From a virus (taxonomy: Duplodnaviria > Caudoviricetes): DNA of 53,791 nucleotides. How positions within the stretch are numbered: position 1 is the first letter of the stretch; each line of letters opens with the position of its first letter. A program made the translations under genes and the position numbers. Of the stretch, positions 5,854-50,282 are shown in pieces. The DNA lies in the IMG/VR virus record IMGVR_UViG_3300048041_000085, positions 1 through 53,791 of that record, one strand, 5' to 3'. The notes beneath the pieces were generated by a model, which made no database searches, was not told the DNA's origin, and saw only the letters and a program-made list of their open reading frames with translations.

Positions 5854-5864
5854 GAATAATAATC

Positions 5865-6185
5865 CTATCTACAGTCTTTTTTGTCCATCATACCGCCTCT
5901 TTTCATAGCAGAACGCATGACATTGTCTGCAGAACGCATGACATTGTCTCTAGGAATAAATCGACCTACGTCCATACCCATAGCATGCGCTTCTCGCTCA
6001 TCATCTGCGCCAACAGCATCACCGGCAGCATGACGTTCTCTGTCATTCTCACCGCGACTACCACCAGCACGTGCACCGCCTCGCATGTTCGTATTTGTTG
6101 GATATTCCATACCTTCGGAATCACGCTGGCGAGCCATGCCATCAACATACGCTATCGCTTCATTTCTACCCACTATCTGTGTCAT
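5865..6185 (-). CDS. Small low-complexity virion protein with KRGG motif
   Basis: ATGA overlap with portal stop; HAAGDAV/HAMGMDV/MKRGGMM motifs. Confidence 0.6.
   Translation of the reverse strand: MTQIVGRNEAIAYVDGMARQRDSEGMEYPTNTNMRGGARAGGSRGENDRERHAAGDAVGADDEREAHAMGMDVGRFIPRDNVMRSADNVMRSAMKRGGMMDKKDCR
5908..5949. repeat. Exact 21-bp tandem duplication (encodes DNVMRSA x2)
   Basis: GCAGAACGCATGACATTGTCT twice. Confidence 0.9.
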
Positions 6186-8746: not shown

Positions 8747-8848
8747 TCCGTGGGGTAAGCTACATATGCATGAGATTTATATAAAATAAATGTAATTTAC
8801 ATTTTATACAATAACGATTTTAATTTTATTAAATTTATTTATAAATTG

Positions 8849-8954: not shown

Positions 8955-9596
8955 ATGATAGTATTAGTAGGTGGAGAAAAAGGTGGCACGGGAAAGACGA
9001 CAATAGCAACAAATCTGGCGGCGATGCGCACAGCAGTGACTGGAGAGGTATTGCTAGTTGATACTGATGCACAGTCAACATCAACGTATTGGTGCTCCCG
9101 TAGAGAAGACAATGGAATTGTTCCACGTGTAACGAGTATCCAAAAGTCCGGTAAAGCCGTTAAGTCTGAGGTTGTCGAACTCAACAAAAAATACACTGAC
9201 ATTATAATAGATGCAGGTGGGAGAGATTCCCCCGAACTTAGAAGTGCACTTCTTGTTTGTGATAAGGTGATATTCCCCTTAAGACCGTCTCAGTTTGATA
9301 TGTGGACACTCGACAGGCTTAATATGTTAGTTAATACGGCTTTAGAGATAAACGAACCCCTTAAAGCTTATGTGTTGGTTAATCAGTCGCCAACAAACCC
9401 TGCAAGCAAAGAAGTTAAAGAGATGAAAGCTTTCTTAGATGAGTTTGATCAACTTGAGCTATTATACTCTGTCGTTTGCGAAAGAATTGCCTTTAGAAGA
9501 GCTGCCCTCGCTGGGTTATCTGTTGTAGAACATAAACCAGAAGATCAAAAAGCTAACTTTGAAATTAATAGTCTTTATGGAGAAATATACGCATGA
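8955..9596 (+). CDS. parA: ParA-family partition ATPase (type Ib, no N-terminal HTH)
   Basis: Deviant Walker A KGGTGKTT, LVDTDAQ, IIIDAGG; 213 aa. Confidence 0.95.
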   Translation: MIVLVGGEKGGTGKTTIATNLAAMRTAVTGEVLLVDTDAQSTSTYWCSRREDNGIVPRVTSIQKSGKAVKSEVVELNKKYTDIIIDAGGRDSPELRSALLVCDKVIFPLRPSQFDMWTLDRLNMLVNTALEINEPLKAYVLVNQSPTNPASKEVKEMKAFLDEFDQLELLYSVVCERIAFRRAALAGLSVVEHKPEDQKANFEINSLYGEIYA

Positions 9597-9877
9597 CACA
9601 AAACAAGTTTTCAAGACCAACTATATCTACTGCTGACAAAGAAAAAAAGGCTGAAGAGTTTATAGGCTTTATGGACAAAGTAGCCGATGAGAAAACAAAA
9701 GAGCGTACAACTGAAAAAGAAGATACGCACCTTTTTTCCTTTAGAATCCCAATCTCTCTATTTGATGATATGAAAGAGATATCTGCTTTATCAAGGATAT
9801 CTCTCAACTCTATCTGTTTAGATGCTATCCGGTCTTGTGTTAAGAAAAAACTGAAGGAGCTAAAGGAAGATGAATAG
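9593..9877 (+). CDS. Putative centromere-binding RHH protein (ParG-like partner of ParA)
   Basis: ATGA overlap with parA; flexible N-terminus (AEEFI) and FSFRIP..LFDDMKEIS....SLNSI ribbon-helix-helix pattern. Confidence 0.75.
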   Translation: MTQNKFSRPTISTADKEKKAEEFIGFMDKVADEKTKERTTEKEDTHLFSFRIPISLFDDMKEISALSRISLNSICLDAIRSCVKKKLKELKEDE

Positions 9878-10692: not shown

Positions 10693-10766
10693 TCGGAAAT
10701 CGTCTAACGGTAGGACAACAGGTTTTGGTCCTGTTAATATTGGTTCGACTCCAGTTTTCCGATCCA
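10693..10766 (+). tRNA. tRNA-Gln (anticodon UUG)
   Basis: Acceptor TCGGAAA/TTTCCGA, anticodon stem ACAGG/CCTGT with TTG at 10725-10727, TTCGA T-loop, encoded CCA; U1-A72. Confidence 0.92.
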
Positions 10767-16701: not shown

Positions 16702-16851
16702 TTACAACACCGCCTCAATAATCTCTGGATCAGCCTCAACAATCTCCTCAACCACATCTTCGACGATAAATTCATCTTCTTTGGGTAAGCAATAAAAGCC
16801 TATACCAGCTACGAGGAGAACAATCAATAGACCTAATTCATACTGTTTCAT
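16702..16851 (-). CDS. 49-aa single-TM acidic membrane protein, candidate lysis accessory
   Basis: MKQYELGLLIVLLVAGIGFYCLPKEDEFIVEDVVEE..; ATGA-coupled to endolysin stop. Confidence 0.6.
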   Translation of the reverse strand: MKQYELGLLIVLLVAGIGFYCLPKEDEFIVEDVVEEIVEADPEIIEAVL

Positions 16852-17354
16852 TGGTTTAATCCCTTCAACAAAGCATCCATCTCCCCAATCGTATACATTG
16901 CTGGTAATTCATGGCTTCCCAGCTGTACGTGATCTGAATCTGTTGCTGGCTCTGGCCAATTACGCCCTGGTGTTAACCCCACCAATAAAGCTTGTGCTGC
17001 CAGAATATCATAAATAGGACCACCCGCCATGTCTCCATCAACGAATATGTCACAAGCTTTTCCTATGAGATGATAGCTATAAATGAATGTGTGAGTAACC
17101 TGAGGACCATTAGCCTGAGGCCCTACGCCTTGCAATACCGATGCCGCATAAGGCGCATCATTAGCAATCAACATCGCTATCTCAGCATTAACTTGATCAG
17201 TTGTCCTGCTTTGTCGCCATAGCTTAGCCTGTTCTTCCAATGTCCGAATGCCATAATATGGATTAACAGTGTGTCCGAGTGCTTCCATATTTGTTAATAG
17301 CTCTTGAAGCAATTGGGCGAATGTAGGGTCTAGTTTTGTAAAATCAATTGTCAT
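16848..17354 (-). CDS. Endolysin, M15-family (L-Ala-D-Glu peptidase-like)
   Basis: RTLEEQAKLW.Q.RT, SYH..GKACD, D..HVQ zinc-peptidase motifs; probable start MTIDF (ORF open to 17384). Confidence 0.85.
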   Translation of the reverse strand: MTIDFTKLDPTFAQLLQELLTNMEALGHTVNPYYGIRTLEEQAKLWRQSRTTDQVNAEIAMLIANDAPYAASVLQGVGPQANGPQVTHTFIYSYHLIGKACDIFVDGDMAGGPIYDILAAQALLVGLTPGRNWPEPATDSDHVQLGSHELPAMYTIGEMDALLKGLNQ

Positions 17355-17418
17355 TTTCTTACCTTCTTTATGTGTATTTTTCATAAAATAAAAAATTATT
17401 CTAATTTATTCAAGTGTT

Positions 17419-19137
17419 TTAGTAATTAATATCACTATACGTTAAGTTCGGACTCAAGTGCGAAATCAAGCTTGGATCATCACGCCATCTATGTTCTTGT
17501 ACAGGTGGTTCTTCTGTCGGTAAATATACTAGCTCACGTGCTCTTATTTCAATAAATGCTTGAGATACAGCGTCGACTAAGTCTTGATCTTTAGAGGTAG
17601 GACACCCTAACAGGGCTTGCATCACTCTATTAGCAAATGGATACAATATACCATTCTCATTTGAAGGTAACCATACAAGCCCTTGCTCTACCGTGATACT
17701 AGCTAACCGTGCACGTCTTGTTTTGCCTGATTCATCACTGCCACCACTTAACCCACGAACATTAGGATTAAACCCGAATATGGGAAGGCCTGAACGATTT
17801 AAGTCTTGAATTATTCCCTTACCTTGGAGTGTATCCTCTATGAGTATGATGTCAGCTGCCTTAGATAGTGCAGGGTCTCTCATCTCGATAGAATGAGATC
17901 TAAGAGATGGGTTTATACTGTGATAGTTCCTACCTAATCTTATAATCATTCGCCTTAGATCAGGTTGCTCTAGTTTCCCTGACCATGCGCCCAATAAGAT
18001 CAAATGAAATGCATTGTCAAGCGTTTGAAAGACGCCGAAGGTGCAGCAAGCTGATTCGCAGGCGTCAATTCCAGTCGCAACTGCTGTGTCCCAACTCTGG
18101 ACTATACATAAACAAGCAGGTGCCTTTCCTTCATCCCAGATATTAAACCACTCCCGTTTGAAAATGTTACCTGATTCTGCTGTCGGTAGCTGTTGGAGCT
18201 GAGAGCTTCTATTATACTCTGTACCTAGCATGATCTTTAATTCATCTACATAAGAGCGTGGCATACGTGATGGCCAGAGGAGTTCTTTGTCTTTAGAACG
18301 GGGATCAGTCCAGGCTGTCTTACTATCACCGATAGGAATCGTTACACATTTACGAGCTGGATCAAATTCCATGGGTAACATCAAATGATATGTCTTGGGT
18401 AATTTCATGTCTAACAGAAGCTGAGCCGCATCCTCCTCATGTAATCTTTGCATAATAAGAATGGTTACGCTAGTTGTGGTGCTGTCTTGACGCACAAAGA
18501 TCGAATACAGACGGGCACGCGTTCTATCTCTTAATGTCTTATAGATGATGTCGTCTGCTCTGTTGATATCATCAAATATGTTAATGTCTCCACCATGACC
18601 AACAGCATTACCGCCAATAGATTTAATAATGCGTTCTCCGCCTCTCATATTAGCGAACCTAGAGTTGGTATTCACATCCTTCCGCAACTTGACTTGAGTG
18701 CCCCAGAATTTTTGATATAATTCAGACTCTATAATGCGTTTGCATTTAATAGAGTCACGCATAGAGAGATCTTTATCACCTGTTAGACAAAATACCTTCT
18801 TATGAGAATGTTTTATCCAGGCAAAAGCGGGAAAGAATACGTTACAGATTAAGGATTTCATGCAACGAAAAGGAATATTAATAACAAGGTAACGTATCTT
18901 ACCTTCAAGTGTGGCCTGGAGATGCAGAGCTATATCTCTGATATGCCAATTGTCAAAAAACTGGTGTTCTCCTTCTACAATATGCCAGAAAGTCTTGATG
19001 AAATAATGAAGAGACTCTTCACACTTGCGCTTAGTCTCTTGCTCTTCTTCAGTTAGAATAACGAATTGATATTTACGTTGCTCTTGTACTTCTATGCATG
19101 ATTCATGCCTCTTTTTTAGCAGAGTAGCAACTGACAT
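17419..19137 (-). CDS. terL: Terminase large subunit
   Basis: Walker A NIPFRCMKS, Walker B DINIFDD, MQRLHE.D, QQ.P, nuclease SWDTA and D.DLVDA.SQA. Confidence 0.93.
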   Translation of the reverse strand: MSVATLLKKRHESCIEVQEQRKYQFVILTEEEQETKRKCEESLHYFIKTFWHIVEGEHQFFDNWHIRDIALHLQATLEGKIRYLVINIPFRCMKSLICNVFFPAFAWIKHSHKKVFCLTGDKDLSMRDSIKCKRIIESELYQKFWGTQVKLRKDVNTNSRFANMRGGERIIKSIGGNAVGHGGDINIFDDINRADDIIYKTLRDRTRARLYSIFVRQDSTTTSVTILIMQRLHEEDAAQLLLDMKLPKTYHLMLPMEFDPARKCVTIPIGDSKTAWTDPRSKDKELLWPSRMPRSYVDELKIMLGTEYNRSSQLQQLPTAESGNIFKREWFNIWDEGKAPACLCIVQSWDTAVATGIDACESACCTFGVFQTLDNAFHLILLGAWSGKLEQPDLRRMIIRLGRNYHSINPSLRSHSIEMRDPALSKAADIILIEDTLQGKGIIQDLNRSGLPIFGFNPNVRGLSGGSDESGKTRRARLASITVEQGLVWLPSNENGILYPFANRVMQALLGCPTSKDQDLVDAVSQAFIEIRARELVYLPTEEPPVQEHRWRDDPSLISHLSPNLTYSDINY

Positions 19138-24453: not shown

Positions 24454-24699
24454 TTAATTAAATTTATTGCAATATTCCGCAAAAGCTAGTAAATGTTCAT
24501 CTTTATGGAAAGGTATTTGTGTACTTCTTTCCCATATGTAAATAATTTTCTGAGAGTTACTTTGGTAAATAGCCTTTGTAAATATGTTGCGTTTTTCCCG
24601 TAAGAAATAAGAAAATGTCGGCGATATCTCTATACCTTCCATAACGATAGGTTGATAAAGATGGTTGATCGTTATTAAATCAAATTCTTGTATGTTCAT
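24454..24699 (-). CDS. Hypothetical protein
   Basis: ORF track, AGGAG SD. Confidence 0.5.
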   Translation of the reverse strand: MNIQEFDLITINHLYQPIVMEGIEISPTFSYFLREKRNIFTKAIYQSNSQKIIYIWERSTQIPFHKDEHLLAFAEYCNKFN

Positions 24700-25120
24700 G
24701 ATCTTCTCCTAGATTTTTTTCACTTTTCTCTTTGTTCTCATGATGGATAATTAAAGTTGAAATATCTTCATGCTCTCGTCCGCAGGCTAGAACACAAGCC
24801 GTTTCTCCAAATTTATTGTTAAAATGCGTATTAGCCCCGGATTCAATAAGGAATTTTGCAATATCGTAATAGCCACATATAGCCGCATGAATCAAAGGCG
24901 TGTCTCCCCGCGTATTTCGAGGGTTTAAATTACAACCCTTTGCAACAAGGATCTTTACAATGTCAATGTGTCCTCCGTAAGACGCTATCGACAAAGCTGA
25001 CTCTCCGAAAACATTCTTAAAATCAACATCTGCGCCCTCTTCAATGAGAGTTTTTACTCTCTCAAAGTCTCCCTCTTCTACAGCATCTACTAAAAAACCA
25101 CTGTGTAATTTATTTTCCAT
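24680..25120 (-). CDS. Ankyrin-repeat protein (~4 repeats)
   Basis: GESALSIASYGGHIDIVKILV.KG, GDTPLIHAA..G..DIAKFLIESGA, GETACVLA; AGGAGG SD. Confidence 0.95.
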   Translation of the reverse strand: MENKLHSGFLVDAVEEGDFERVKTLIEEGADVDFKNVFGESALSIASYGGHIDIVKILVAKGCNLNPRNTRGDTPLIHAAICGYYDIAKFLIESGANTHFNNKFGETACVLACGREHEDISTLIIHHENKEKSEKNLGEDHEHTRI

Positions 25121-27840: not shown

Positions 27841-27879
27841 GTTGCTTGCTGTTATCTAATTCGGGATGCAGCAAGCAAC
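27841..27879. terminator. Hairpin downstream of secreted-protein gene
   Basis: 11-bp perfect IR GTTGCTTGCTG/CAGCAAGCAAC. Confidence 0.5.
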
Positions 27880-27896
27880 GTTATATTAAATTAATT

Positions 27897-29174
27897 TTAG
27901 ACGACCACAAAATCATCAGCATCAGACACAGAGCCACTCATAGGCAAAGATGCATCTCTTGGTGGTATGCCAAGGCTAAATCTTAAATCCCTTTCAATAA
28001 ATGACCCTGAGGATGATGCAACTGAAACGTTATGCGAGCTTCCATTCGCCAGCATTTCTCCAATATTAAGAAAAGAAGCTCCTGGAATTCCACCAACAGA
28101 CGTTCCTGTAGACGCAAGTGATGAAACTTCGGAGTTAATATCATAATTTGCAAATCCTCCTGGAAAACCAGAAAGGCTAGAGATACGTGAGTTTCCGCCT
28201 CCATTCTTCGCTGCAAGAAGTGCCATCAATTCTTGGATTTGTTTTCTAGATTCATCATCTCTTCGCCTAGAGTCAGCTTCCGAAGCTAATCTAGCTTGTT
28301 CCATTTGATTTGACAGCTGAATAAATCTAGCTTCGGAGGCTAATCTATCTTGTTGCTCACGAGCAATGCTTTGTTGAAAAAGTGTTTCAACTTTTTCTGC
28401 AGATTCTGATCTAAGATCATTCATCATTTTTAAAAGACCGCTATTTTGTTCTCTTAAAATTTTCATTTCATCCGCAAAAACTCTTCTTTCTTCCGCTGCA
28501 ATCCTCGCTACCTCCAACGCAGTTACGTCTCTTCTTTCTTGATCAGCTTTTATCATTGAAAACAACTGTTGAGTTTGTTGTCTCAAATCTTCATTTGCAC
28601 TCAGTAAATCCATTCTCATGGTAGCCGTGGATAACTTTAAATCTGAAAGTTCTTTATTAACATTTAAAAGATCTTTCTTCATAAGAATCAAATCAGTTTC
28701 TAGGTTTTTAACCTTTTCATTGAGTTCATTTACCATAAAATAAAGAACTTTTACATGCTGATGATCTTCATCATATTTTGAGATTGAGGCTTTCCAGTCC
28801 TTATCAGTGGTTTGTTTGTTTTGCATAAAGGATGCAATTTTGTGCATGGATTCCTTCATAGTTTTCACTTCTTCGTCGGTTGCGGTTCTGCTAGAAAATC
28901 CGTTTTTACCGCCTGTTAGTAAAAACCATATCGCAGCTTCCGGTTTTGTAACTGAGATTTCATGCACATACTGCACGATAGTTGTCTTTGAGTTTTCAAA
29001 TTCATTCCACCACTGAGTTTGAAGGCTTTTATCTTGTCCGGATTTAGAAGAAGAATAGTGTTTCCCCGCTCTCATGGCTTCATCTCTGTCAGACTCAATA
29101 GGAGTAGGAATGGTTGCTCCTGCAATAGATGTTAAGATTGTCGAAAGAGCCAAAAATCTTGAAAGGTTTTTCAT
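27897..29174 (-). CDS. Secreted coiled-coil protein with C-terminal LIR/AIM-like motif (candidate eukaryote-targeted effector)
   Basis: Sec signal MKNLSRFLALSTILTSIAGA; long coiled coil; Ser/Gly-rich tail ending SVSDADDFVVV. Confidence 0.6.
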   Translation of the reverse strand: MKNLSRFLALSTILTSIAGATIPTPIESDRDEAMRAGKHYSSSKSGQDKSLQTQWWNEFENSKTTIVQYVHEISVTKPEAAIWFLLTGGKNGFSSRTATDEEVKTMKESMHKIASFMQNKQTTDKDWKASISKYDEDHQHVKVLYFMVNELNEKVKNLETDLILMKKDLLNVNKELSDLKLSTATMRMDLLSANEDLRQQTQQLFSMIKADQERRDVTALEVARIAAEERRVFADEMKILREQNSGLLKMMNDLRSESAEKVETLFQQSIAREQQDRLASEARFIQLSNQMEQARLASEADSRRRDDESRKQIQELMALLAAKNGGGNSRISSLSGFPGGFANYDINSEVSSLASTGTSVGGIPGASFLNIGEMLANGSSHNVSVASSSGSFIERDLRFSLGIPPRDASLPMSGSVSDADDFVVV

Positions 29175-29208
29175 TTTATTTCTCCAATAGTAAAGTTTTT
29201 TATTTTAT

Positions 29209-29406
29209 TTATCTAATAGTGCGGCTTGTAATGAACGATTCTAGATCACAAACCTTATATTTAACAGTTGTTCCAAGCTTTATATAAGGCAAACTATATT
29301 TTTTGCTAGTTGCCCATGCAGCTAATGTAGCTTCTTTTAGATCAAGGTATTCTGCCGCTTCTTTACGCGTAAGTAATTTTTCTTGTTTAAGACTGGATGT
29401 TAACAT
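29209..29406 (-). CDS. HTH_17 / excisionase-like DNA-binding protein
   Basis: LLTRKEAAEYL.LK..TL..W......LPYIKLG..VKY...DLESFI; probable start MLTSS at 29406. Confidence 0.85.
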   Translation of the reverse strand: MLTSSLKQEKLLTRKEAAEYLDLKEATLAAWATSKKYSLPYIKLGTTVKYKVCDLESFITSRTIR

Positions 29407-29579
29407 CAGTTTTCCTTTCCATAGTTCACCATACAATTTTATCGTATTATACGAAATCATAGTGGGACGCAATAACAAAAAATAATTCTTTCTTTCATCG
29501 AAAATATGTTAATGCTATTCTCATAAAAATTTGTGTAAAATATATTTAAATTTAGAGCAATAATTAAAAGGTAGTATGT

Positions 29580-31322
29580 ATGGCAACCAAAGATCTCATT
29601 TTTAGTGATGATGTACGTAATAAGATATTAGAAGGCGTCAGGAAAGCCGCAGATGCAATCACCTGTACACTTGGCCCAAAAGGTCGGCACGTGATTATAG
29701 AAAGAGCTGGAGAATCCCCCCGTATCACTAAAGACGGTGTTTCCGTTGCCAAAGAAGTTCACCTAGATGATCCTTTTGAAAACATGGGTGCGGAGCTTTT
29801 AGCTGAAGCTTGCGACAAAACCTGTAGAGATGCAGGGGATGGCACAACAACATCAAGCTTGTTGACCTATCATCTTGTCCGCGAAGGCGTGAAAGCGATT
29901 CAAATGGGGACGAATCCAGTTGATCTTAAGCGCGGAATGGAGCTTGCGATGAAGGATGTAATCAAATACATCAAAGCATTTTCAACGCCTATTTCTGAAG
30001 AAGACCCACACGGTAATTTAAAATCTATTGCTACGATTTCAGCCAATGGCGATGAAAATCTTGGAACAATGTTAACAGATGCCTTTAAAACCATTGGTAA
30101 TGATGGCTCTCTTATTTTAGTTGAAGGTAAAACTTTAGACACAACACTTGAATTTCAACAGGGTATTAATCTAGATTTTGGCTATGATCCTGACGCTATA
30201 AGTTCAATTACTCACCCTGATACGAAAACATGTGAATACAAAGACGCGTACATATTCTTTCATGACGCAGATTTTACCGAAGAAAAAATAAAATACTTTA
30301 TTGAAGCGATTAATCTTAAATCTCAAGAACAAAATTCCCTAATTCCTATTGTTGTTATTGCTCAGTCATTTAAAGGAAATAGCCTTTCCATCATTAATAT
30401 TAATAATGCTAAGCGTAGTACCCGGATTTGTCCTGTAAATCTTCCTCCCTTACAAGATGAAAAAAATTCCAGAAAACAACAATATGATTTTCTAAGTGAC
30501 TTCTGTGTTATTACCGGTGGTAAAATGATGGAACGTGAACAAGGGGACATGTTCAGTAAGCATATAGACACTTCCTATTTTGGACGTGCCGAATGTACTA
30601 TCGTTGGAAGGAATAAAATAACAATCATTGGCGGTAGAGGTGATGCTGACGCCATCGAATCACACAAACAAAACCTTATTAAGGAACTAGAAGAATACAA
30701 ACTAAGAGTTGATAAAGATGAGACTTATGAGCGTCATCTCACAACGCGTATTCAGCATTTTAGTCCCATGGCTCTTATTCGTGTCGGGGGTTCTACTGAT
30801 ACCGAAATATCAGAACGTAAAGACCGCGTTGAGGATGCTATGCACGCTACAAAGGCAGCAATGGATAGCGGATACGTACCAGGAGGTGGAATTGCCCTTC
30901 TCAGAGCCTCAGATGACCTTGTAATAGATGCTATCAATGAAGATGTAGAGATGGGTCAAAAGATTGTTAGAAAAGCTCTTAAAGCTCCTTTCACAAAGAT
31001 TCTTGATAATGCGGGTTATAATGCTGACAGTTGTTATGAGAAAATCTCTAAACCTCTTTCGATTAGACTTGATGTAAAAGATCACAAAATTGCAGATAAA
31101 ACTATCATTTTGGAAGACATCAAACAATTGTTTACCGGTATTGACGCAAACACAGGTGAAGTTTGTCATATGATTAATGAAGGCATCCTTGATCCTACCA
31201 ATGTTGTTATAGCGTGCGTTCAAAATGCTGTTTCAATTGCGGGATTACTACTAACAACTGAAACAATGGTTAGTTACCATGATAGAACACCAAACCCAAT
31301 AGCAGGATTGAAATTTAAATAG
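29580..31322 (+). CDS. groEL: Chaperonin GroEL (Cpn60), divergent apical domain, no GGM tail
   Basis: TLGPKGR, ITKDGVSVAKE, AGDGTTT, IATISANGD, KDRVEDA..AT.AA, VPGGG, GILDP. Confidence 0.97.
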   Translation: MATKDLIFSDDVRNKILEGVRKAADAITCTLGPKGRHVIIERAGESPRITKDGVSVAKEVHLDDPFENMGAELLAEACDKTCRDAGDGTTTSSLLTYHLVREGVKAIQMGTNPVDLKRGMELAMKDVIKYIKAFSTPISEEDPHGNLKSIATISANGDENLGTMLTDAFKTIGNDGSLILVEGKTLDTTLEFQQGINLDFGYDPDAISSITHPDTKTCEYKDAYIFFHDADFTEEKIKYFIEAINLKSQEQNSLIPIVVIAQSFKGNSLSIININNAKRSTRICPVNLPPLQDEKNSRKQQYDFLSDFCVITGGKMMEREQGDMFSKHIDTSYFGRAECTIVGRNKITIIGGRGDADAIESHKQNLIKELEEYKLRVDKDETYERHLTTRIQHFSPMALIRVGGSTDTEISERKDRVEDAMHATKAAMDSGYVPGGGIALLRASDDLVIDAINEDVEMGQKIVRKALKAPFTKILDNAGYNADSCYEKISKPLSIRLDVKDHKIADKTIILEDIKQLFTGIDANTGEVCHMINEGILDPTNVVIACVQNAVSIAGLLLTTETMVSYHDRTPNPIAGLKFK

Positions 31323-32016: not shown

Positions 32017-34200
32017 TTAAGGGTGTTTTTTATCCTTCTCATTCGTATTTTCTCTCAAAACTTGTCGCACTGACGGATTCTGTAACAGATGATCAAGGGC
32101 TCTTACTTTCTGGTTGTGAGACCGTGCTGTTATTAAGCGATCAATCCATTTAACAACAGTTTGGTTTGTCCACATTTTAGCTGTTCCTTGCTTAAGCAAA
32201 TACCCCCCAACAGCAGATGCAATAGGCGTTATATTTCCTGTAAAAGCAGCAAAACCCGCTGTTCCAAGTGCAGTAGATTGATTTATTACATGCTGAGTAT
32301 GGGCAGTGCCAGAGGTGTTGGCTAACTCTCCAAAACGTTCTTTATTCTTTCCAATATATTTTAAGGCCTGAGTAAAATTACGGCGCTCAACGGGTGAAAA
32401 CCCTTTTAAGTTTGCCTCTAAAACATGATCATCTAAAGTAGATAATTTTGCATGAGCTTTAAAGATATTAAACTTGCCATTATCTTTGCCAAAATCAGAG
32501 ATGATAGCTTCCGTTAAATGACGTTGTTTCTCTTTGGGTAACCCATTCATAACAAGCGTTGCATATCTGGGGTTTGTGCTTGTTAACTTCTTAAATGCGA
32601 CGACATCATCAGGTGCTCCTTGGATTTCTGTCATTAAATGAAAAATACTCTTGTTACTTTCTTTTTTACTTTTAAATTTAGTATAAAATCTATTAGCCTT
32701 AAGATACGCTTCTACTTCTTCAGGCGTTCCAAGTCCTTCCATAATCTTTTCACGTGCATTTGCAAATTTACTATAAGTTGCAAAATCTTCAGGATTGCCA
32801 AATCTATTTTGTCTTGTAAGAGCTTCATTCCTTAATTGTTCGAATTCACCATAGGGAATGTCATACTTCGTAGGTTTATTTTGAACATGCGAACCAGCTT
32901 CTTTTATTGCCCTTTCAATAACATCATCACGATAATTTTGTTTTTTTAGTTCGGCTGTCGTCTTAGCAATTAAATCTGATTCTTTCGGCCTATGACTATC
33001 AGCATGCTCCTCAATTTCTTTTTTAAAATAACCAGCTGATGTTTTATTAAACTTCCTTATAGCGGGCTGACTTTTTAGGGGTTGTTGCTCTTTCATAAGC
33101 TCTTTGTGCAATTCAGATATATCAACAAGATGATGACCTTTAAGGGCAGCTTGTTCTTTCGCTACTATTGGCTCTTTTAATTTCTCAAAAGTTCGACTAA
33201 TTAAATCTTCATAACCTCTAGCACCTTCTTTAGCTAATTCCTTTGAAATCTGTTTATGATTTTCTAAGGGTTCTAATTCTGTCTTTCCTAAAGATCTAGC
33301 AAAAGCAGTATTCCTCTTATGTTTGTATTTATCCATAACAGAAGAACCACCAATATCTTTACCTAAGAGCAGATCGACATAAGTTGGGATTTTACTCTTA
33401 GTTACATCGCTTACAGACATAGGGATACCTAAGTCTTTAAGATCATTGAAAGTAGTACTATTATGGCCTCGAACATAATGAGGTAACGTCGTTGCTCCAC
33501 GGCCCACTCCACCCCCTACCACAGAACCAAGTACACCCGCTCCAATTGTACCTAGTATGCCTGGATCCTCTGCATTTTCACTGTAATACTTCGATGCTGT
33601 CGAAGCCCCGACATTTGCACCTACTTTTGGAGCCGTTAATTCATAAGGTTTGAATTTAGCATTAGCAACTTTTCTTATAGGAGATTGTGCAAGCTTCGGA
33701 ACTGCTTTGGTTAATCCTTTAGCTGCTGTTGATGTTAACGAAGCCCCACCCGTTACAGGAGCTAAAGCAATAGGGGCTAACCCCTCGCCAATAGTGTCAA
33801 TCCATTCTTCTGTTTTATTGCGCGGCTTTAATCTATCGCCCGTAAGTGTATCAATTCCAGATTGAACAGCACGTGAGGGAGATGGATAAAATTCAGGTGT
33901 TTCTTTAAGACCAGCTGCGTGTAATCCTAATGCTGGAAGGTTAGGAATATCACCTATACTTGCAAGACCCGTGGCAAGTATTCGTCCTGTCCTACCAACC
34001 TGACGTACTCCCTCTTGGCCTAATTCCAGCAAAGATCTCGACTTCTCTACAGGTTCGGCTTTTCCTTCAATTTCTGCAGCAATCTGTTTCTTTCTTTCCT
34101 CTATCTTTGCTTGAATAAGAGAGTGCCTAATCTCACGTTTACGCTCTGCAATAGCTTGAACTATTTGTTCTTTGCTTAATCTTACTTGTTCATTAGGCAT
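32017..34200 (-). CDS. DNA ejection / internal virion protein
   Basis: Large helical protein with Gly-rich hydrophobic segments and NTSGTA motif; last gene of tail operon. Confidence 0.65.
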   Translation of the reverse strand: MPNEQVRLSKEQIVQAIAERKREIRHSLIQAKIEERKKQIAAEIEGKAEPVEKSRSLLELGQEGVRQVGRTGRILATGLASIGDIPNLPALGLHAAGLKETPEFYPSPSRAVQSGIDTLTGDRLKPRNKTEEWIDTIGEGLAPIALAPVTGGASLTSTAAKGLTKAVPKLAQSPIRKVANAKFKPYELTAPKVGANVGASTASKYYSENAEDPGILGTIGAGVLGSVVGGGVGRGATTLPHYVRGHNSTTFNDLKDLGIPMSVSDVTKSKIPTYVDLLLGKDIGGSSVMDKYKHKRNTAFARSLGKTELEPLENHKQISKELAKEGARGYEDLISRTFEKLKEPIVAKEQAALKGHHLVDISELHKELMKEQQPLKSQPAIRKFNKTSAGYFKKEIEEHADSHRPKESDLIAKTTAELKKQNYRDDVIERAIKEAGSHVQNKPTKYDIPYGEFEQLRNEALTRQNRFGNPEDFATYSKFANAREKIMEGLGTPEEVEAYLKANRFYTKFKSKKESNKSIFHLMTEIQGAPDDVVAFKKLTSTNPRYATLVMNGLPKEKQRHLTEAIISDFGKDNGKFNIFKAHAKLSTLDDHVLEANLKGFSPVERRNFTQALKYIGKNKERFGELANTSGTAHTQHVINQSTALGTAGFAAFTGNITPIASAVGGYLLKQGTAKMWTNQTVVKWIDRLITARSHNQKVRALDHLLQNPSVRQVLRENTNEKDKKHP

Positions 34201-37030
34201 GTAATTGTGCCTCTAATTTTTGAATAATAGGATCATTTACATAAGCACTTTCTATATCTAGACCAACCGGCTGTTCAGCTGTCTTTTCAGATGCTTTACC
34301 AGCTATTTCTACAGGAGCTGTCGTTACTTCTCCAAGATTAAACTGAGAATTATTTTTTTGAAATTCATAAAGAGAATCTTTAGGGGAAATGCCCTTTTTA
34401 TAATTTTCATTTATCAATGCGGAAAGCTCAGCTTGTTTTTCAAGTTCTTTTATCTTTCCTTCAATGACGCTATTTATCGCTTTTTTATCCATATTTCTAG
34501 TAGGGCCGCCCTTTCCAAATATAGACGCGGATAAAACATCAAATTCTTCTTTATCAGCTTTTGTGCCTTTCCCTGTATATTTACTTGAAAATAGCCCTGT
34601 TGACATCTTAGAAACTAAGTCTTTAAGTTTTTTTAAATCACCTATCTCAGAAGTTGCCTTTAAAAGATTATCATTGGTTTTTTTGAATAATGCTTTATCG
34701 ACCTCATCTATCTTAGGCGCTGTTTGAGAGGCCACCGTGTTTTTTCGGTTTAAAATATCACTTTTAAGTTTTAAAATCTTATCTCTATACTTTTCATCCC
34801 GCTCTATCTTCTTTAACATTTGATCCTCTTTGCGAGAATCATTTGCAATTTGATAATCAGCCATTAATGATTGTAATTGTCTTTGTTCAGCCTTATCTTT
34901 CGAAGCTTCTCTTTGACCCGCACTTTCTTTATAAGCAGAGGCTACACGACCTAAAGTATTATCGCCGCCAACACTAGAGACACCGACCATGAAATCATTC
35001 ATCATTTGTGCCATCGGATTTTCAGTACGCGGTTGTTGTCTTTGAGCTAAATGATTCTTTAAATTATCCTTCTCTTTAAATGCGGCTGCTTGATCTGCAC
35101 CTGCTTGAATAGGATCAACAGCACCACCTGCATTATATTTACGACGTTTCCCTATTTTTGTTTGGGAAATATCCATGGCATTCCCTTTATTGATCAATCT
35201 CTTAAGCTCATACAAAGGGCTGCTATGCTCAATAACGGCATTATCAACCGCTTCACCAATCACGCCACCTTGTGCCTTTTTGACATGAACAATGCCACCT
35301 TTTTTACGGAATAATTGATTGGCGCCCATATTCATCATACCCGCACCCATTTGTTGATTTATATTAGGACGGGAAATCGGAGGCTGAATATTCGCACGTG
35401 TTTGAAAGGCAGTAGGAACTTGAGGCATTCTCGATTTAATATTCATGCCTTTAACCATAGATTCGTAAGAATGCTCTTTCGCTCGATTCGCCTCATCAAA
35501 ATTTTCATTAAGAACTTGTTGCTCACGCTCTCTGTTTACTTCACCTTGAGTTTTTAAATGCCAGATAAACTTCTCTTTCTCATTCTCCTCATTTTGATGT
35601 TGTTGAGCTAAGAAATGAGAGGCTCGTTCTTCATCGCCCCTTTCTTGAGTGGCATTTTTAGAGGCTATCTCTCCTAGATTAGCATGATGACCTAAATAAT
35701 TTTGGCCAGCTTGTAGAGCTGTTCTATTGTTCTCTAGGATAGCTTCCCTGATAGATCTTTGTTTGCCCTTCTCATGCTCTGCGGTTGCCCGTTCTAGAGC
35801 TTTACCGACAGCCCCATATTTAGCCGGTCCAATCTTGTTGACTCTTTCAATGCGGGGTAGATATTCTTCTTTGAATTTCTTGTCCATATCTTCGTTGATA
35901 TGCGCGATCTTCTCCATAACATCTTTATCTAATTGGCCTTTAAAGACATCAAGGGGATTACCCGCCGATCTATTTAAATAAGGGGCAGCAACTGCTGATT
36001 GTTTCGGTAAATTTGATAAAGCTTCAATTCTCTTTCTTTGACCTTCATGATGGGCTAAATTCTTAATAGAAGAAGGAGAATTTTCGCGTATGTTCTCCAT
36101 CGCGAGTTTTTCTAAAGGATCACGTTCCGCTATACGATTCCCTGTATAAGGTTTATAAGGTTTGCTCATCTCATCTATGGTTTTTTCTAGCATGGCATGC
36201 TGAAACTGTTGTTCAGCCGGTGTACCATGGGATTGTTCTAAAGCAACTTGATGCGCAAAGGCCGGTAATTCTTTTACATAAGATTTGATAGGTTTTGTTT
36301 CTGCTGCATTTTTATCTATTTCAGCACGGGCTTCTTCTTGTGCCGCTGCATCAGGATTTAGAGCATCTCTAAATACTTTTTCTTCATGAGCGCGTTTTAG
36401 TTCTTCCTCGGTATTATGGGTCGATGCTTTTTTAGCTTTCGTTTCCTCAATGAATTTCTTGTATTCTCTATTAGCAGTCTTAAACTTAGGTCTATCGCTA
36501 TAATTTAACTTACTCCTAAGGTCTGCGTTATTTATATTGCCTTTATCTTCTTGTCTCGGAAGAAATTTTAATAATTCTTCTGTTGGTACGTCATCTTCTA
36601 AAATACCTTTAGTTTTAATATCATCAAGAAGGTTCTGTTTTCCAGGCTTTATCGTCCCATCTTTATTAAAAATATCGTGCAAAATTTTATTTTTAATATA
36701 AGTTCTTGGGTTGGCTTTTGCCCTCCTTGTTAGTTCATCCAAATATTGATTTATATCCGGATAGTCAGCAAACAGCATATTAGGATAATAAGGTTCTATC
36801 TGATCTGGTGTTTCTGCACTATATACAGCCCTTATTTGAGCCTGTCTTTCATCCTTACTTATGTGCCTATTCATCCTTATAAGTTTAATTATGTGTGACT
36901 TTGCAGCATCAAAAGCATTTTTACGATTAGGATTTAAAGTATCAGGTAATTCTCCTGCAAAACGCGGATTGGTTGCCCGTGTAAAACTCTTAGGGATTCT
37001 AAACTCCCCTTTTTTGTAAGCGCTTGGCAT
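34193..37030 (-). CDS. DNA ejection / internal virion protein
   Basis: 945 aa helical; PYKPYTGNRIA, KKGG/AQGG/AGG motifs. Confidence 0.65.
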   Translation of the reverse strand: MPSAYKKGEFRIPKSFTRATNPRFAGELPDTLNPNRKNAFDAAKSHIIKLIRMNRHISKDERQAQIRAVYSAETPDQIEPYYPNMLFADYPDINQYLDELTRRAKANPRTYIKNKILHDIFNKDGTIKPGKQNLLDDIKTKGILEDDVPTEELLKFLPRQEDKGNINNADLRSKLNYSDRPKFKTANREYKKFIEETKAKKASTHNTEEELKRAHEEKVFRDALNPDAAAQEEARAEIDKNAAETKPIKSYVKELPAFAHQVALEQSHGTPAEQQFQHAMLEKTIDEMSKPYKPYTGNRIAERDPLEKLAMENIRENSPSSIKNLAHHEGQRKRIEALSNLPKQSAVAAPYLNRSAGNPLDVFKGQLDKDVMEKIAHINEDMDKKFKEEYLPRIERVNKIGPAKYGAVGKALERATAEHEKGKQRSIREAILENNRTALQAGQNYLGHHANLGEIASKNATQERGDEERASHFLAQQHQNEENEKEKFIWHLKTQGEVNREREQQVLNENFDEANRAKEHSYESMVKGMNIKSRMPQVPTAFQTRANIQPPISRPNINQQMGAGMMNMGANQLFRKKGGIVHVKKAQGGVIGEAVDNAVIEHSSPLYELKRLINKGNAMDISQTKIGKRRKYNAGGAVDPIQAGADQAAAFKEKDNLKNHLAQRQQPRTENPMAQMMNDFMVGVSSVGGDNTLGRVASAYKESAGQREASKDKAEQRQLQSLMADYQIANDSRKEDQMLKKIERDEKYRDKILKLKSDILNRKNTVASQTAPKIDEVDKALFKKTNDNLLKATSEIGDLKKLKDLVSKMSTGLFSSKYTGKGTKADKEEFDVLSASIFGKGGPTRNMDKKAINSVIEGKIKELEKQAELSALINENYKKGISPKDSLYEFQKNNSQFNLGEVTTAPVEIAGKASEKTAEQPVGLDIESAYVNDPIIQKLEAQLHA

Positions 37031-37035
37031 ATAAA

Positions 37036-38670
37036 TTATCTCCCGATTACTTTTTTATAATAAGTCATGAGACCATGAGAGGCGGGTGGCAATTCATCAT
37101 GATTGGAGACCTTGTGACGTCTAATTTCTTTTGTAACTTTACGGAGTCTTTCCGCGCCTTTTTCAAAACAACCTTCACCTAGAGCACCAACCAATAAAGG
37201 CGGCGTCGTATCCTCACCGTTAGCGACAGCGACATTTACTTGACGAAGCTTCCCACCTGGTTGGCTCTTTATCTGTTCCATTAATTTATCTTTATGAAGG
37301 GGAAGGAGTTCTTTTTTGATGAATTTTTCAAACTCTCTAATATCTTTATGACCCTCTTTAGTCGTGCCATCGCCTAAGGCACTCACTGTATGCGCATCAT
37401 GAACCCACGTTTTTTCAGGAAGTTTATCTAGGATAAGATCTTCTTGACCTTTCCCCTTACCAATAAGAGGCACACCCTTTGTCGAATAATCTTTGACCAG
37501 ACCGCCTTTTTTATATCTCCTATGAGGATTATACCCCTTGGTTTCCCATTCCTTTGTAAATGAATCTAATGTTTGATAAGGATTCTTTGTTTTTGCACGA
37601 CCATAATGCTCATTATATGCAGGCTCTGCATATCCATAAAGTTGAGACGATAGACCTTGTGCATTATAAGCTTTTTGCGATTCTTCTAAGCTCTTTTTAT
37701 GAGATTCAGCATAAGCATCTTCTTTTTTCTCTCTTTGTTTATCTCCCTTATTCCCTAAGAGATAACCGGCGCCCATTAAACCGGCAGGCACTAGATAATT
37801 TCCCATGCCGGCCGTCATACTCATAGCAGCAGGTGCTGTGGTTGCTGCTGCCCCTGTGGTTGCAAGACCAGGCATTGCTGCTCCTGTGGTTCCATTAATG
37901 ATAGGAGCACCTACCGCAGCAGCTCCTTGACCAACTCCCATAGCACTCATCCCCGATCCTGCTGCTGCCCCATAAAAGGCATTTGGGATAGCGGCTTTCA
38001 GGGCATTATTAGAACCAAAGAAACTTTGCCCCGTAACACCGCGTCCCAATGCATTTCCTGCATAAGCTCCAGCTGCTGCTCCCATAGGACCACCGACAGC
38101 AAAACCGGCAACAGTACCAGCAACCGTTGCAACAACACGAACAGTAGATTTAACGATGTTTCCAATGCTGCTAAAAAACCCAAACTGCGGGAGATCAAAG
38201 GTTGGGTCATTGTGTCCCCCCCCTTGAAGCTTAGATAAAAAGTGAACAACATCAACCGGCATCATAACGATAAATTCATCATCAGGTGTTGTTGCTGCTT
38301 CCTCCATTTTATCGACAGCAGGCTCATCATCTGAAGGAATCGGGATAAAAAGATCTTGGGGCAAAGGTGTTTCCATCTGCTTCGCAATATCTTCTGTTAA
38401 TCCTTCTCCCGTTTTCGCTGATTGTGCTAATTGAATAAACGCCTCTTTAATATGTGTAAGACGTAATAGATGACTTAAGCGTGAGTATTCTCTCAGACCA
38501 GTTTTTGGATCAACATATTGTCCATTGGGGTTTTCTTGATCAGCCTGCAAAATATTAAAGCCGATCACTTCATCTTTTGACAAATGAACCGGGACTAATT
38601 CAGGTGATTTAGACGCATGATGTTGCTTATTCATGCTCTGGACTTGATGCTTACGATCTTTTTCAGCCAT
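37036..38670 (-). CDS. Internal virion / pilot protein
   Basis: Two NP.TG-type modules, Gly/Ala-rich hydrophobic core, YKKGGLV, G.G..D.I domain. Confidence 0.6.
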   Translation of the reverse strand: MAEKDRKHQVQSMNKQHHASKSPELVPVHLSKDEVIGFNILQADQENPNGQYVDPKTGLREYSRLSHLLRLTHIKEAFIQLAQSAKTGEGLTEDIAKQMETPLPQDLFIPIPSDDEPAVDKMEEAATTPDDEFIVMMPVDVVHFLSKLQGGGHNDPTFDLPQFGFFSSIGNIVKSTVRVVATVAGTVAGFAVGGPMGAAAGAYAGNALGRGVTGQSFFGSNNALKAAIPNAFYGAAAGSGMSAMGVGQGAAAVGAPIINGTTGAAMPGLATTGAAATTAPAAMSMTAGMGNYLVPAGLMGAGYLLGNKGDKQREKKEDAYAESHKKSLEESQKAYNAQGLSSQLYGYAEPAYNEHYGRAKTKNPYQTLDSFTKEWETKGYNPHRRYKKGGLVKDYSTKGVPLIGKGKGQEDLILDKLPEKTWVHDAHTVSALGDGTTKEGHKDIREFEKFIKKELLPLHKDKLMEQIKSQPGGKLRQVNVAVANGEDTTPPLLVGALGEGCFEKGAERLRKVTKEIRRHKVSNHDELPPASHGLMTYYKKVIGR

Positions 38671-38693
38671 AAAAAATACTCACGTTTTCATTA

Positions 38694-39986
38694 TTAACGA
38701 TAATTACCGCCGCCTTGATATTGTTGAGGCTGATACTGGTTTTGGTATTGACTGTTACCACCGCCATATCCGCCGCCCTGGCCTTGAGCACCAAATTGCT
38801 GTTGACGTTGTTGCAACATTTGCATTTGTCGTTGATTATTTTGCATCTGGTTTTGATCATATTGATTGGCTTGATTTTGACCATATTGATTGGCTTGGTT
38901 CATCGCATTTTGACCATATTGAGTACCTTGATTCATTTGGTTTTGACCGTACTGCGTCCCTTGATGAAGTCCTTGGGATGCACGATTTGCCAAATTAGAG
39001 ATCATATCTTGACCCATTCGGTTCATATTAGACATCGCATTTTGCCCATATTGGTTCGCTTGTCCAATACCTTGTTGACCTTGTTGATTCATTTGATTCA
39101 TTTGGTTTTGTGCTTGCCCCGGTTGATAATTACCTTGTGGTTGTCCGCCGCCACCCATCATACTCCCAAGACCTCCCATGCCTGCGCCTAATAAAGCACC
39201 TTCAGGGCCACCTTCCATTAATCCTGTAAGGCCTCCTTGAATCATGCCTGGGGCAGCTGTTCCTATCGCATGCATAGCTTGATTGCCCATATTTCCAAGG
39301 AATTTACCAGCTGAGCCAATACCATTTTTAATACCGCTAAAGATACTACCTAAGCCAAAATATTCTGGATGGCCAGTATGAGGATTCTTATTTTCGCGGT
39401 GATCACCGCTTAAATCCTTAACAGTTTTATCAAAGATTCTACGTGTATTCCCGCCAATATAAGCCATCTCACTATCACCGAAACGACCTTTTCTCTTCAA
39501 TTCATCAATATGGCGTTTAGATTCACCTATTTGACCACCGGATGCGTGCTTCTCAAATACTTTTCTAAAAGCTTCTTCACCGCCTGGAGTTGAAAGCATA
39601 ATCTCAATTTTTTTATAATGAGGTGTCTTTGTGCCAGGAACAGTTGTACGTCCACCTTGTTGATCATCAAGTACTTCAAGTTCCTTAGGATTGAAATGCG
39701 CAAGGTGAAGTTCCATAGGCTTCTTGCGTTTTTTCTCATGCCGTTCTTCTTCGCGATCATCTTCATCTTTCGGTTCATATGTTAAAGAAAAATCCCTAAA
39801 TATTTGATGATTTTGAGAATGATTTTTCTCATGCTGTGGGGCTTCAGTATTAAAATATCTCATGGGTGGTTGCTCCTGTTGTGGTGGTTCTTCTGGTTTT
39901 TTGTATTGTGACCTAGGCATTACTCCTAATCTTTTCTGAATCTCAGGATCGTGGAGAGCCCCTATCACATTTCCCATAAAGCCCAT
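38694..39986 (-). CDS. Internal virion protein with Q/N/G-rich tail
   Basis: GRFGDSEMAYI..NPHTGHPEYFGL; QYGQN repeats. Confidence 0.6.
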   Translation of the reverse strand: MGFMGNVIGALHDPEIQKRLGVMPRSQYKKPEEPPQQEQPPMRYFNTEAPQHEKNHSQNHQIFRDFSLTYEPKDEDDREEERHEKKRKKPMELHLAHFNPKELEVLDDQQGGRTTVPGTKTPHYKKIEIMLSTPGGEEAFRKVFEKHASGGQIGESKRHIDELKRKGRFGDSEMAYIGGNTRRIFDKTVKDLSGDHRENKNPHTGHPEYFGLGSIFSGIKNGIGSAGKFLGNMGNQAMHAIGTAAPGMIQGGLTGLMEGGPEGALLGAGMGGLGSMMGGGGQPQGNYQPGQAQNQMNQMNQQGQQGIGQANQYGQNAMSNMNRMGQDMISNLANRASQGLHQGTQYGQNQMNQGTQYGQNAMNQANQYGQNQANQYDQNQMQNNQRQMQMLQQRQQQFGAQGQGGGYGGGNSQYQNQYQPQQYQGGGNYR

Positions 39987-49742: not shown

Positions 49743-50282
49743 CTAGGATGATGTAAATGTTGAGATGCCATCAGAATAAGCACTGGTAACATCGGGATAA
49801 GTGGAAGCAACCTGCAAAACATAATAAGTATGTGGTGCTAAGCCTGTGATGGTGTAGGTAACAGTAGGATAAATCGTGGCGGGTATATCGAAGATAGGGT
49901 TTTGTACAACAGTGCTTGTCCATTGAACGACATAACTTGTAGCTACTGATACAGAATTCCAGGATACGGTTATTGAGTCATCAGTTACGGAATCAACAAC
50001 CAATCCGGTTGGTATCGGCGGTGTATTTTGACGTAAGAGAATACGAATAATCGGGGACGGTTGAGGATCAGGACGCAACCATGCCGGGGCTAATTGAGCT
50101 TGTGGCACATCAACATGATCTTTATGGGTATAAAATCCTGTCCATTGAATTTGACTTCCCATATATTGCATAACGGGGACCATGTCATCGACCATAATTG
50201 GTAAACCGCGAATATCATCGCGGCCATAAGGCATAAGATCATCTTCATCTACATAAGGAATACGACCCCTATAATTACTCAT
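49743..50282 (-). CDS. Virion protein with C-terminal fibronectin type III domain
   Basis: PTGLVV..VTDDSITVSW....TSYVVQW..YTITGLAPHTYY.LQV. Confidence 0.75.
   Translation of the reverse strand: MSNYRGRIPYVDEDDLMPYGRDDIRGLPIMVDDMVPVMQYMGSQIQWTGFYTHKDHVDVPQAQLAPAWLRPDPQPSPIIRILLRQNTPPIPTGLVVDSVTDDSITVSWNSVSVATSYVVQWTSTVVQNPIFDIPATIYPTVTYTITGLAPHTYYVLQVASTYPDVTSAYSDGISTFTSS

Follow-up and report, generated by a model that had tools for sequence, protein, structure and literature searches.

The window analysed here is the whole of the IMG/VR virus record IMGVR_UViG_3300048041_000085, a DNA of 53,791 nucleotides that is rated 100% complete and represents a tailed phage of 53.8 kb. On its minus strand, an open reading frame (ORF) at 27897-29174 begins with an ATG at 29174-29172, ends with a TAA stop at 27899-27897, as read from the sequence, and encodes a protein of 425 amino acids (aa), referred to below as the focal protein. 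Its gene is an accessory gene of a complete tailed phage, and its product is composed of a signal peptide, a head, a long helix and a Ser/Gly tail (Table 1). The protein falls into a family, hitherto without annotation, that comprises 48 representative clusters, and this family is the solid new result of the present work. An earlier account, made from the letters of the DNA and here called the sequence-only reading, had proposed that the protein is an exported effector whose extreme C-terminus resembles the LC3-interacting region (LIR) of ULK1 and ATG13, by which a phage-plasmid of an intracellular bacterium would act on host autophagy. That interpretation is partly supported, in that the motif match, its conservation and the phage-plasmid label all stand up; the protein itself is here tentatively assigned to the bacterial envelope.

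The N-terminus consists of a basic n-region (MKNLSR), a hydrophobic core (FLALSTILTSI) and the residues AGA followed by T, which together provide the n-region, core and A-x-A site of a Sec-type signal peptide. This call is a by-eye reading of the sequence. Residues 1-20 are identical in both of the close homologs described below and, among the 78 ORFs of at least 80 aa in the window, the focal ORF alone passes a crude hydropathy filter for such a leader. AlphaFold2 gave a poor model with a three-sequence alignment (predicted local distance difference test, pLDDT, 54) and a pLDDT of 72 with the 48-sequence family alignment. In the latter model the head (residues 46-121) is predicted to be helical and residues 139-320 to form a single unbroken helix, with pLDDT above 90 across the head and over approximately residues 140-250. 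The predicted helix lacks proline, includes a single glycine over its 182 residues and, fully straight, would measure about 27 nm. Set against shuffles, its heptad pattern is modest (z = 1.9), so a long helical, coiled-coil-like rod is the safe wording; of the long coiled coil claimed in the sequence-only reading, the helix is borne out by the model and the heptad pattern only modestly so. Residues 315-425 fall below a pLDDT of 50, in keeping with the disordered tail that had been described, and Ser and Gly make up 21% and 15%, respectively, of residues 323-425. The protein has no cysteine. It terminates in ...MSGSVSDADDFVVV, directly followed by TAA, and codons 27923-27900 read DADDFVVV, exactly as had been claimed. 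Since the sequence and the model show each of them, all four protein elements of the sequence-only reading are present. Two other candidate features of the tail were rejected: an outer-membrane beta-signal, as the C-terminus is VVV and not aromatic and there is no barrel, and a second transmembrane segment, as the top 19-residue hydropathy windows all lie inside the signal peptide.

The family was delineated by sequence searches. A word-indexed protein search returned two full-length homologs, P0002 (64% identity) and P0003 (59%), and a hidden Markov model (HMM) scan of 1.84 billion representatives recovered 48 proteins at E <= 0.001, with 30 at E <= 1e-10 and three at E <= 1e-30. Two fragments, P0004 (an N-terminal piece of 152 aa that belongs to the close subfamily) and P0005 (109 aa, matching the focal C-terminus at every residue), were left out of the counts, and the family set after their removal comprises 48 sequences: the focal protein, the two close homologs and 45 distant members. 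Repeating the word-indexed search with the family profile brought in P0004 and P0050 and nothing else. Common to all 48 is a head of about 75 residues (WW..Y..S.K.IV.YV..IS...P.AA.WFLLTGGK.GF..R.AT.EE), in which G88 and G92 are invariant and W56, Y69, A81, W83, F84 and G89 are at least 90% conserved. The head is the sole part conserved throughout, the helical regions and tails varying widely in both length and sequence, and a hydrophobic leader is detected by the crude hydropathy filter in 43 of the 48 members. As judged from these alignments, it is the signal peptide and the conserved head, not the tail, that define the family. Several distant members end in Ser-/acid-rich low-complexity tails, three of the 48 passing a 60% polar/acidic cut. 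A CxxC or C..C[HY]D motif lies between the signal peptide and the head in five of the 48 (P0008, P0027, P0033, P0040 and P0049).

Comparison with reference collections gave no relatives of established function. Pfam, PHROGs, NCBIfam and PADLOC assigned no family to the focal protein (Pfam and PADLOC at E <= 0.01, the PADLOC library covering systems described by 2023 only), and a Pfam scan of all 48 members produced coiled-coil families only, which are regarded as noise. A sequence profile search of the PDB likewise gave only coiled-coil and haemagglutinin-stalk noise. With the full-length model, Foldseek found nothing at E <= 0.001 in the PDB and BFVD, and a wide VIA-align search returned long-helix matches only, all with Z below 8; the ESM Atlas gave no usable match for the whole protein or for residues 21-135. 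The focal protein had no tblastn match in phage and plasmid collections. Scans of species genomes with exact peptide patterns gave no confirmed relatives; because of the use of such patterns, absence from bacterial genomes is weak evidence. Scans of viral contigs gave none. Among metagenome contigs, two loci with family members were found (L002 and L003).

The tail belongs to a narrower group. Matches to it in the HMM scan (profile positions 335-442) were limited to the close subfamily plus the identical fragment P0005; none of the 45 distant members has a tail of the focal type. Identity to P0002 and P0003, respectively, is 100% and 100% in the signal peptide, 62% and 62% in the head, 68% and 51% in the rod, 93% and 91% in tail residues 323-366, and 52% and 61% in tail residues 367-412. 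Residues 323-366 are the best-conserved region of the protein after the signal peptide. This Gly/Ser-rich block is conserved though modelled as disordered; it may serve for binding, act on membranes as a glycine-rich stretch, or be a module acquired by recent exchange.

At the end of the tail, re-alignment places SG-SVSDADDFVVV of the focal protein against SGSSVSD-DGFVNIKNNDTY of P0002 (which begins SGSSVSD-DGFVNI) and SGDSVSD-DGFVTVENDNV of P0003. In this comparison of three sequences, both close homologs retain the block SVSD-D-[DG]-F-V-x-[V/I], while the residues just before it show an indel and substitutions; P0002 has a seven-residue deletion just upstream. The sequence-only reading had named a motif unconserved in homologs as evidence that would tell against it, and both close homologs keep the block. 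It had further anticipated that homologs would keep the terminal motif while the tail diverges. The motif is indeed kept, but in P0002 and P0003 it lies 5-6 residues short of C-termini that differ from the focal one (KNNDTY and ENDNV, respectively), and the tail has hardly diverged over residues 323-366. Because only three sequences carry the tail, its conservation has little power. Contigs covering the focal gene came from three of four peat runs, one run contributing none, and yielded 13 pieces with 0 differences, so there is no population variation by which to judge selection.

The ending DDFVVV (residues 420-425) is the sole match within the focal protein to the xLIR pattern, used in the six-residue form printed in PMC5640201, and the LIR claim of the sequence-only reading holds at this level. 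The core [W/F/Y]-x-x-[L/I/V] is represented by FVVV (422-425) in the focal protein, FVNI in P0002 and FVTV in P0003. Both FVVV and FVTV fit the GABARAP interaction motif (GIM), which is given as [W/F]-[V/I]-X2-V in PMC5538626. P0003 satisfies xLIR with DGFVTV, whereas DGFVNI of P0002 fails it at the fifth position; the last core residue of P0002 is I, as in ATG13 FVMI. SVSDADD precedes F422, and the motif lies within a predicted-disordered stretch with pLDDT below 50. The same paper lists ULK1 TDDFVMVPA, ULK2 TDDFVLVPH, ATG13 HDDFVMIDF and ALFY KDGFIFVNY, and the ULK1-, ATG13- and GABARAP-type sequences given in the sequence-only reading agree with it. On sequence criteria, the ending passes every test for a GABARAP-type LIR and is a candidate motif.

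The LIR-like ending may also be a chance match. Of shuffles of the mature protein, 38% contain an xLIR at any position and 0.8% contain one in the final 12 residues; among window ORFs of at least 100 aa, it occurs anywhere in 16 of 54 and within the last 12 residues in one, the focal ORF. A strict pattern, requiring [WF][VI]x[VI], at least two D/E among the preceding four residues and a position within the last 12 residues, has P = 0.0004 for the focal composition and would be expected 0.047 times in the full set of 78 ORFs of at least 80 aa. This pattern was defined post hoc, with the motif already seen, and chance hits of the strict kind are expected when very many windows are scanned; for both reasons the motif statistics alone are insufficient for a claim. 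Only one other ORF of the window (50279-51373, minus strand), which encodes a virion-region protein, carries the strict pattern, there internally; it illustrates that the pattern can arise with nothing to do with autophagy. Across the family, xLIR falls in the last 40 residues of four of 48 members (P0001, P0003, P0011 and P0038), against about 2.2 expected from the 1.15 matches per 1000 residues seen in the window, so the family as a whole is not enriched and the motif is a feature of the subfamily. In PMC5640201, xLIR matches are reported in 6376 of 16,609 viral proteins, and iLIR@viral is described as recording LIR patterns for 188 bacteriophage species (1517 sequences), judged there to be likely false positives. 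Literature searches on prophage- or phage-encoded LIR found no natural phage ATG8 ligand among the papers listed, and the word 'phage' occurs 0 times in PMC8634866, a review on bacterial LIR effectors.

The gene order on the minus strand is a helix-turn-helix (HTH) gene (29478-29209), the focal gene, a hairpin and two ORFs, one of 99 aa and one of 351 aa, the latter without a known family, beyond which lie an ankyrin gene, recombination genes and TerL. The HTH_17 gene is the first after a divergent intergenic region, and the order on this strand makes the focal gene the second gene of an early leftward unit. None of 200 shuffles is as stable as the hairpin, which is absent from the list of the consensus terminator scan. 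The focal gene may close a short HTH-plus-cargo transcript. Promoter scans around it gave no informative result on a promoter of its own.

The two metagenome loci provide further contexts for the family. L002 contains a terminase-like ORF (read from its translation), a resolvase, a methylase-like ORF, the family member and a patatin-like phospholipase; the last (7609-8757, plus strand; Pfam E = 4.6e-28) is directly downstream of the family member and is followed by a repeat-rich ORF that looks tail-fibre-like by translation reading. In L003 the order is an ankyrin gene, RecT, YqaJ, two signal-peptide ORFs, a replication-like gene, the family member, a transporter of the MFS family and TerL. 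The two signal-peptide ORFs (5763-6884 and 6917-7519, plus strand) have signal-peptide-like N-termini and look helical by reading, with no Pfam family and no head domain, and may form a small exported-cargo cluster with the family member. The ankyrin proteins of the window and of the distantly related contig L003 (1367-1744, minus strand) share 47% identity over 90 residues, and both genes are early-region. A eukaryote-type gene is therefore present in all three phage-like contexts, as ankyrin in the window, patatin in L002 and ankyrin in L003, and the family is consistently combined with one. The family member's neighbours otherwise differ among the three; being non-core, having its own hairpin and lying among variable neighbours, the focal gene has the marks of a moron gene.

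As to the element as a whole, the first 199 bases recur at 53593-53791 with 1 mismatch (position 128) in a record labelled linear, and this terminal repeat indicates a genome that is circular or terminally redundant, with a true length of about 53.6 kb. No integrase was found among the window ORFs scanned, some small ORFs lying outside the scan, and this together with a ParA/ParB-like pair fits a plasmid-like carrier state. The phage-plasmid label given by the sequence-only reading is accordingly reasonable for this tailed phage, with the caveat of the excisionase-type HTH gene upstream of the focal gene.

Leads to the host come from two modules. The ParA is 70% identical to that of CP008939.1, a plasmid of Ca. 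Paracaedimonas acanthamoebae (from Acanthamoeba), with Legionella plasmids next at 58%, and its small partner is 50% identical to the ParA neighbour on CP008939.1. TerL is about 33% identical to those of Roseobacter, Rhizobium and Paracoccus phages, and of the eight plasmid records matched, the top three are replicons from the ciliate symbiont Ca. Megaera polyxenophila. These Megaera plasmids (CP113870.1 and two more) carry a phage-type TerL (33-34% identity), ParA, RecT and YqaJ; virion genes were not seen in their annotation, and they may be remnants of phage-plasmids. Neither CP008939.1 nor CP113870.1 carries a family member. The phage DNA was detected in 16 sequencing runs, eight of them with half or more of it; four are possible sources of the record, and all are labelled peat metagenome and none is on record as RNA. 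Resting on the two mobile modules, ParA and TerL, these leads point to an alphaproteobacterial protist symbiont as a candidate host, and the ankyrin and patatin genes along with the ParA and TerL affinities are indirect signs that the host is eukaryote-associated.

Table 1. Positions of the focal gene, its parts and other annotated features within the 53,791-nucleotide window
Feature	Position	Strand	Basis
Exported rod protein CDS, stop included	27897..29174	-	full-length homologs 64%/59% identity; 48 family representatives
GGAG ribosome-binding site, 7 nt before ATG	29182..29185	-	sequence reading
Signal peptide, residues 1-20, predicted cleavage after A-G-A	29115..29174	-	sequence; homologs 100% identical; by eye
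Conserved helical head domain, residues 46-121, family-defining	28812..29039	-	alignment of 48 sequences; pLDDT >90
Long helix, residues 139-320, coiled-coil-like rod	28215..28760	-	AlphaFold2 single helix; composition; PDB searches
Ser/Gly-rich tail, low model confidence, residues 321-425	27900..28214	-	pLDDT; composition
Best-conserved block in close homologs, residues 323-366 (KNGGGNS.ISSLSGFPGGFANYDINS.VSSLASTGTSVGGI)	28077..28208	-	93%/91% identity
C-terminal block SGSVSDADDFVVV	27900..27938	-	core DDFVVV (27900-27917) fits xLIR and GIM
HTH_17 excisionase/regulator-type gene, 34 nt before focal gene	29209..29478	-	Pfam PF12728 E = 8e-07; phrog_66
Stem-loop 18 nt past stop, likely terminator	27841..27879	-	11-bp stem, -18.8 kcal/mol, z = -5.8
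Ankyrin-repeat gene, early region	24680..25120	-	Pfam Ank_2 E = 6.5e-25; related ankyrin ORF in L003
ParA and small ParB-like partner	8955..9877	+	Pfam AAA_31/CbiA/MipZ; plasmid identity 70%/50%
TerL	17419-19137		virion and tail protein genes also annotated in window
VanY-type endolysin candidate	16848-17384		only endolysin-like gene in window
Erf gene; RecE-like gene; two methyltransferases	window		PHROGs / annotation

We tentatively favour, as the most likely role of the focal protein, an action in the bacterial envelope on behalf of the phage, in the form of either superinfection exclusion or envelope remodelling. This is suggested by the Sec-type N-terminus, found in 43 of the 48 members and identical in the close homologs; by the CxxC-type motif of five members, which is expected in an oxidising extracytoplasmic compartment; by the conservation of the head alone while rods and tails vary; by the position of the gene, which sits behind an HTH gene and ends with a strong hairpin; and by the absence of confirmed relatives from species genomes and from phage and plasmid collections. 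That the gene is cargo is argued by the phage-like nature of all three contexts and by the different neighbours in each. In such a scheme the phage, or its plasmid-like carrier state, would make the focal protein together with the HTH regulator, and the protein would be exported across the inner membrane. The conserved head would then dock it to a fixed component of the envelope, and the rod, with a length similar to the width of the Gram-negative periplasm, would keep the variable tail off this anchor. The tail would be the specificity end, and its LIR-like ending would be a conserved tail block with another role or with none.

Several points weigh against an envelope role, for which only the architecture and the place of the gene speak. 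No similarity links the focal protein to a known exclusion or defence protein (PADLOC 0), nor to a Pfam, PHROG or NCBIfam family. The fold searches gave match lists filled by the rod, since they used the full-length model and no search was made with the head alone. The genome scans relied on exact peptide patterns, so the absence of the family from bacterial genomes counts for little. The ankyrin and patatin genes of the three contexts fit a eukaryote-directed role at least equally well, and the motif block, kept amid an indel and substitutions, looks in sequence like a functional short linear motif.

Two alternatives would take the protein out of the bacterium. In one, which we consider unlikely, it is eukaryote-directed cargo whose tail engages a target other than ATG8, through the block at residues 323-366 or another short motif. 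The eukaryote-type genes of all three contexts are in line with this, as are the two further signal-peptide ORFs, helical by translation reading, directly upstream in L003, the near-identity of the block in spite of its modelled disorder, and the Ser-/acid-rich tails of several distant members. Yet a Sec signal is the only export feature, no domain or motif points to a particular target, and conservation of the block among three sequences could reflect recent recombination and not selection. In the other, which we regard as distinctly improbable, the protein is a lysogenic-conversion effector whose tail motif binds ATG8/GABARAP of a eukaryotic host, such as an amoeba or another protist, and recruits or blocks the autophagy machinery around the bacterium or its vacuole. 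Beyond the fit of DDFVVV to xLIR and GIM, its likeness to ULK1 and ATG13, and that of DDGFV in the homologs to ALFY, as these are printed in PMC5538626, the proposal draws on the placement of the motif in a low-confidence, Ser-/acid-rich tail and on its retention in both close homologs. The expectation of the strict pattern, 0.047 per phage proteome, speaks for it too, as do the ankyrin and patatin cargo, the affinity of ParA to the plasmid of an Acanthamoeba endosymbiont and the top plasmid TerL matches in a ciliate symbiont. Just ahead of the motif, moreover, stand two serines in S-x-x-D spacing, which we take to be of the casein-kinase-2 type. Against it, the Sec signal gives no indication of outer-membrane passage or of entry into a host cytosol, and the DNA is known from peat metagenomes only. 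The three-sequence comparison of the tail is low-powered, the motif is not C-terminal in the homologs, P0002 fails xLIR, the family as a whole shows no xLIR enrichment, and Pfam reveals no cargo-binding domain. The xLIR pattern is in any case common, both in shuffles and in viral proteins, and PMC5640201 deems phage matches likely false positives. In the fuller version, a phage-plasmid whose bacterium lives in protists would carry, next to an ankyrin gene, an ATG8 ligand that would be the first known from a phage, and would use it to tune how autophagy in the eukaryote deals with that bacterium; head, rod and tail would be a scaffold, spread by phages, on which eukaryotic short linear motifs are displayed. 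This appears equally doubtful.

Two further alternatives keep the protein within bacterial machinery, and both are very unlikely. As an i-spanin (Rz) type lysis protein it would bridge the membranes by an N-terminal anchor and a periplasmic coiled coil; it shares with Rz an N-terminal hydrophobic segment followed by a long, presumably periplasmic, helix in the model, with a rod length comparable to the width of the periplasm. It differs in its A-G-A then T site, which suggests a cleaved N-terminus and not an anchor, in its globular head and in being more than twice the usual size; typical i-spanins are much smaller than a protein of 425 aa with such a head. Two of the three hallmarks of a spanin are lacking. 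There is no overlapping or adjacent lipoprotein ORF of at least 50 aa, the only same-strand internal ORF of that size (27983-28216) being devoid of a signal peptide or lipobox, and the gene is about 10.5 kb from the VanY-type endolysin-like gene, outside the lysis cassette. PHROGs gave no spanin match. Alternatively, the acidic, Ser-rich C-terminus could be a signal for a bacterial machine, either a type IV secretion signal or a ligand of a periplasmic PDZ protease, a suggestion to which we give just as little credence. Such signals are made of small, polar and acidic residues with a hydrophobic end, and the focal C-terminus has this character, with hydrophobic residues at the very end. The close homologs, however, end in ENDNV and KNNDTY, so a signal dependent on the C-terminal carboxylate is not conserved, and type IV substrates seldom have a Sec signal such as that of this protein. 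The host, too, has no secretion system on record.

Comparison with known systems places the protein near several of these without matching any. With ULK1, ULK2, ATG13 and ALFY it shares the F-V-x-V/I core, D-D before the core (D-G in the homologs) and an unstructured Ser-/acid-rich stretch; the focal protein is phage-borne and Sec-routed and lacks a kinase-complex or BEACH context, and the likeness is confined to sequence. The autophagy receptors OPTN, NDP52 and TAX1BP1 also have a long helical region and one LIR-like motif. The receptor architecture named in the sequence-only reading is matched only in part, for no cargo- or ubiquitin-binding domain was found (0 Pfam families at E <= 0.01 for the focal protein, coiled-coil noise for the 48), and on this account it is not a usual autophagy receptor; its motif comes after the rod, at the end of the tail, and its head is without a known relative. 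A bacterial-side protein with a eukaryotic ATG8-binding motif would be the point in common with Legionella RavZ and the other LIR effectors covered in PMC8634866. RavZ is a Dot/Icm (type IV) substrate with protease and PI3P-binding domains, whereas the focal protein is phage-borne, carries a Sec signal, is devoid of a catalytic domain and does not resemble RavZ in sequence. Further parallels are phage morons, immunity-region accessory genes such as lambda rexAB behind cI, and exported exclusion proteins, the focal gene likewise being non-core, behind a regulator gene and provided with its own hairpin, with a position that shifts between related phage-like contigs. Like the eukaryotic association module reported for Wolbachia phage WO, the gene also travels with ankyrin genes. 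None of these is related to the focal protein in sequence or fold, and its expression in a carrier state is presumed.

To our knowledge, Wolbachia phage WO apart, little is known of phages that infect intracellular or protist-associated bacteria. Their cargo bears on how symbionts and pathogens gain host-manipulating genes, and the present family is an unannotated, exported one whose phage-like contexts have so far always included ankyrin or patatin genes. If the tail did bind ATG8, autophagy subversion would be a phage-transmissible trait, and a 15-residue peptide would suffice to probe a system with three partners, the phage, the bacterium and the protist. If it did not, the protein would be an example of an exact match to a eukaryotic motif, conserved even in close relatives, without that function.

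Some other genes of the window lie apart from these questions. A GroEL-like chaperonin of 580 aa is encoded at 29580-31322 on the plus strand, divergent from the early region, in a phage of 54 kb. It matches Pfam Cpn60_TCP1 (E = 1.6e-60) and phrog_5725, scores below the GroEL equivalog cut-off, and shows about 34-35% identity to GroELs from far larger phages of Flavobacterium, Bacteroides and Vibrio. Four large ORFs on the minus strand (727, 945, 544 and 430 aa; 32017-39986), situated between this gene and those of the virion, match nothing in Pfam, PHROGs, NCBIfam or PADLOC. The window also carries a tRNA-Gln (anticodon TTG) at 10693-10766 on the plus strand.

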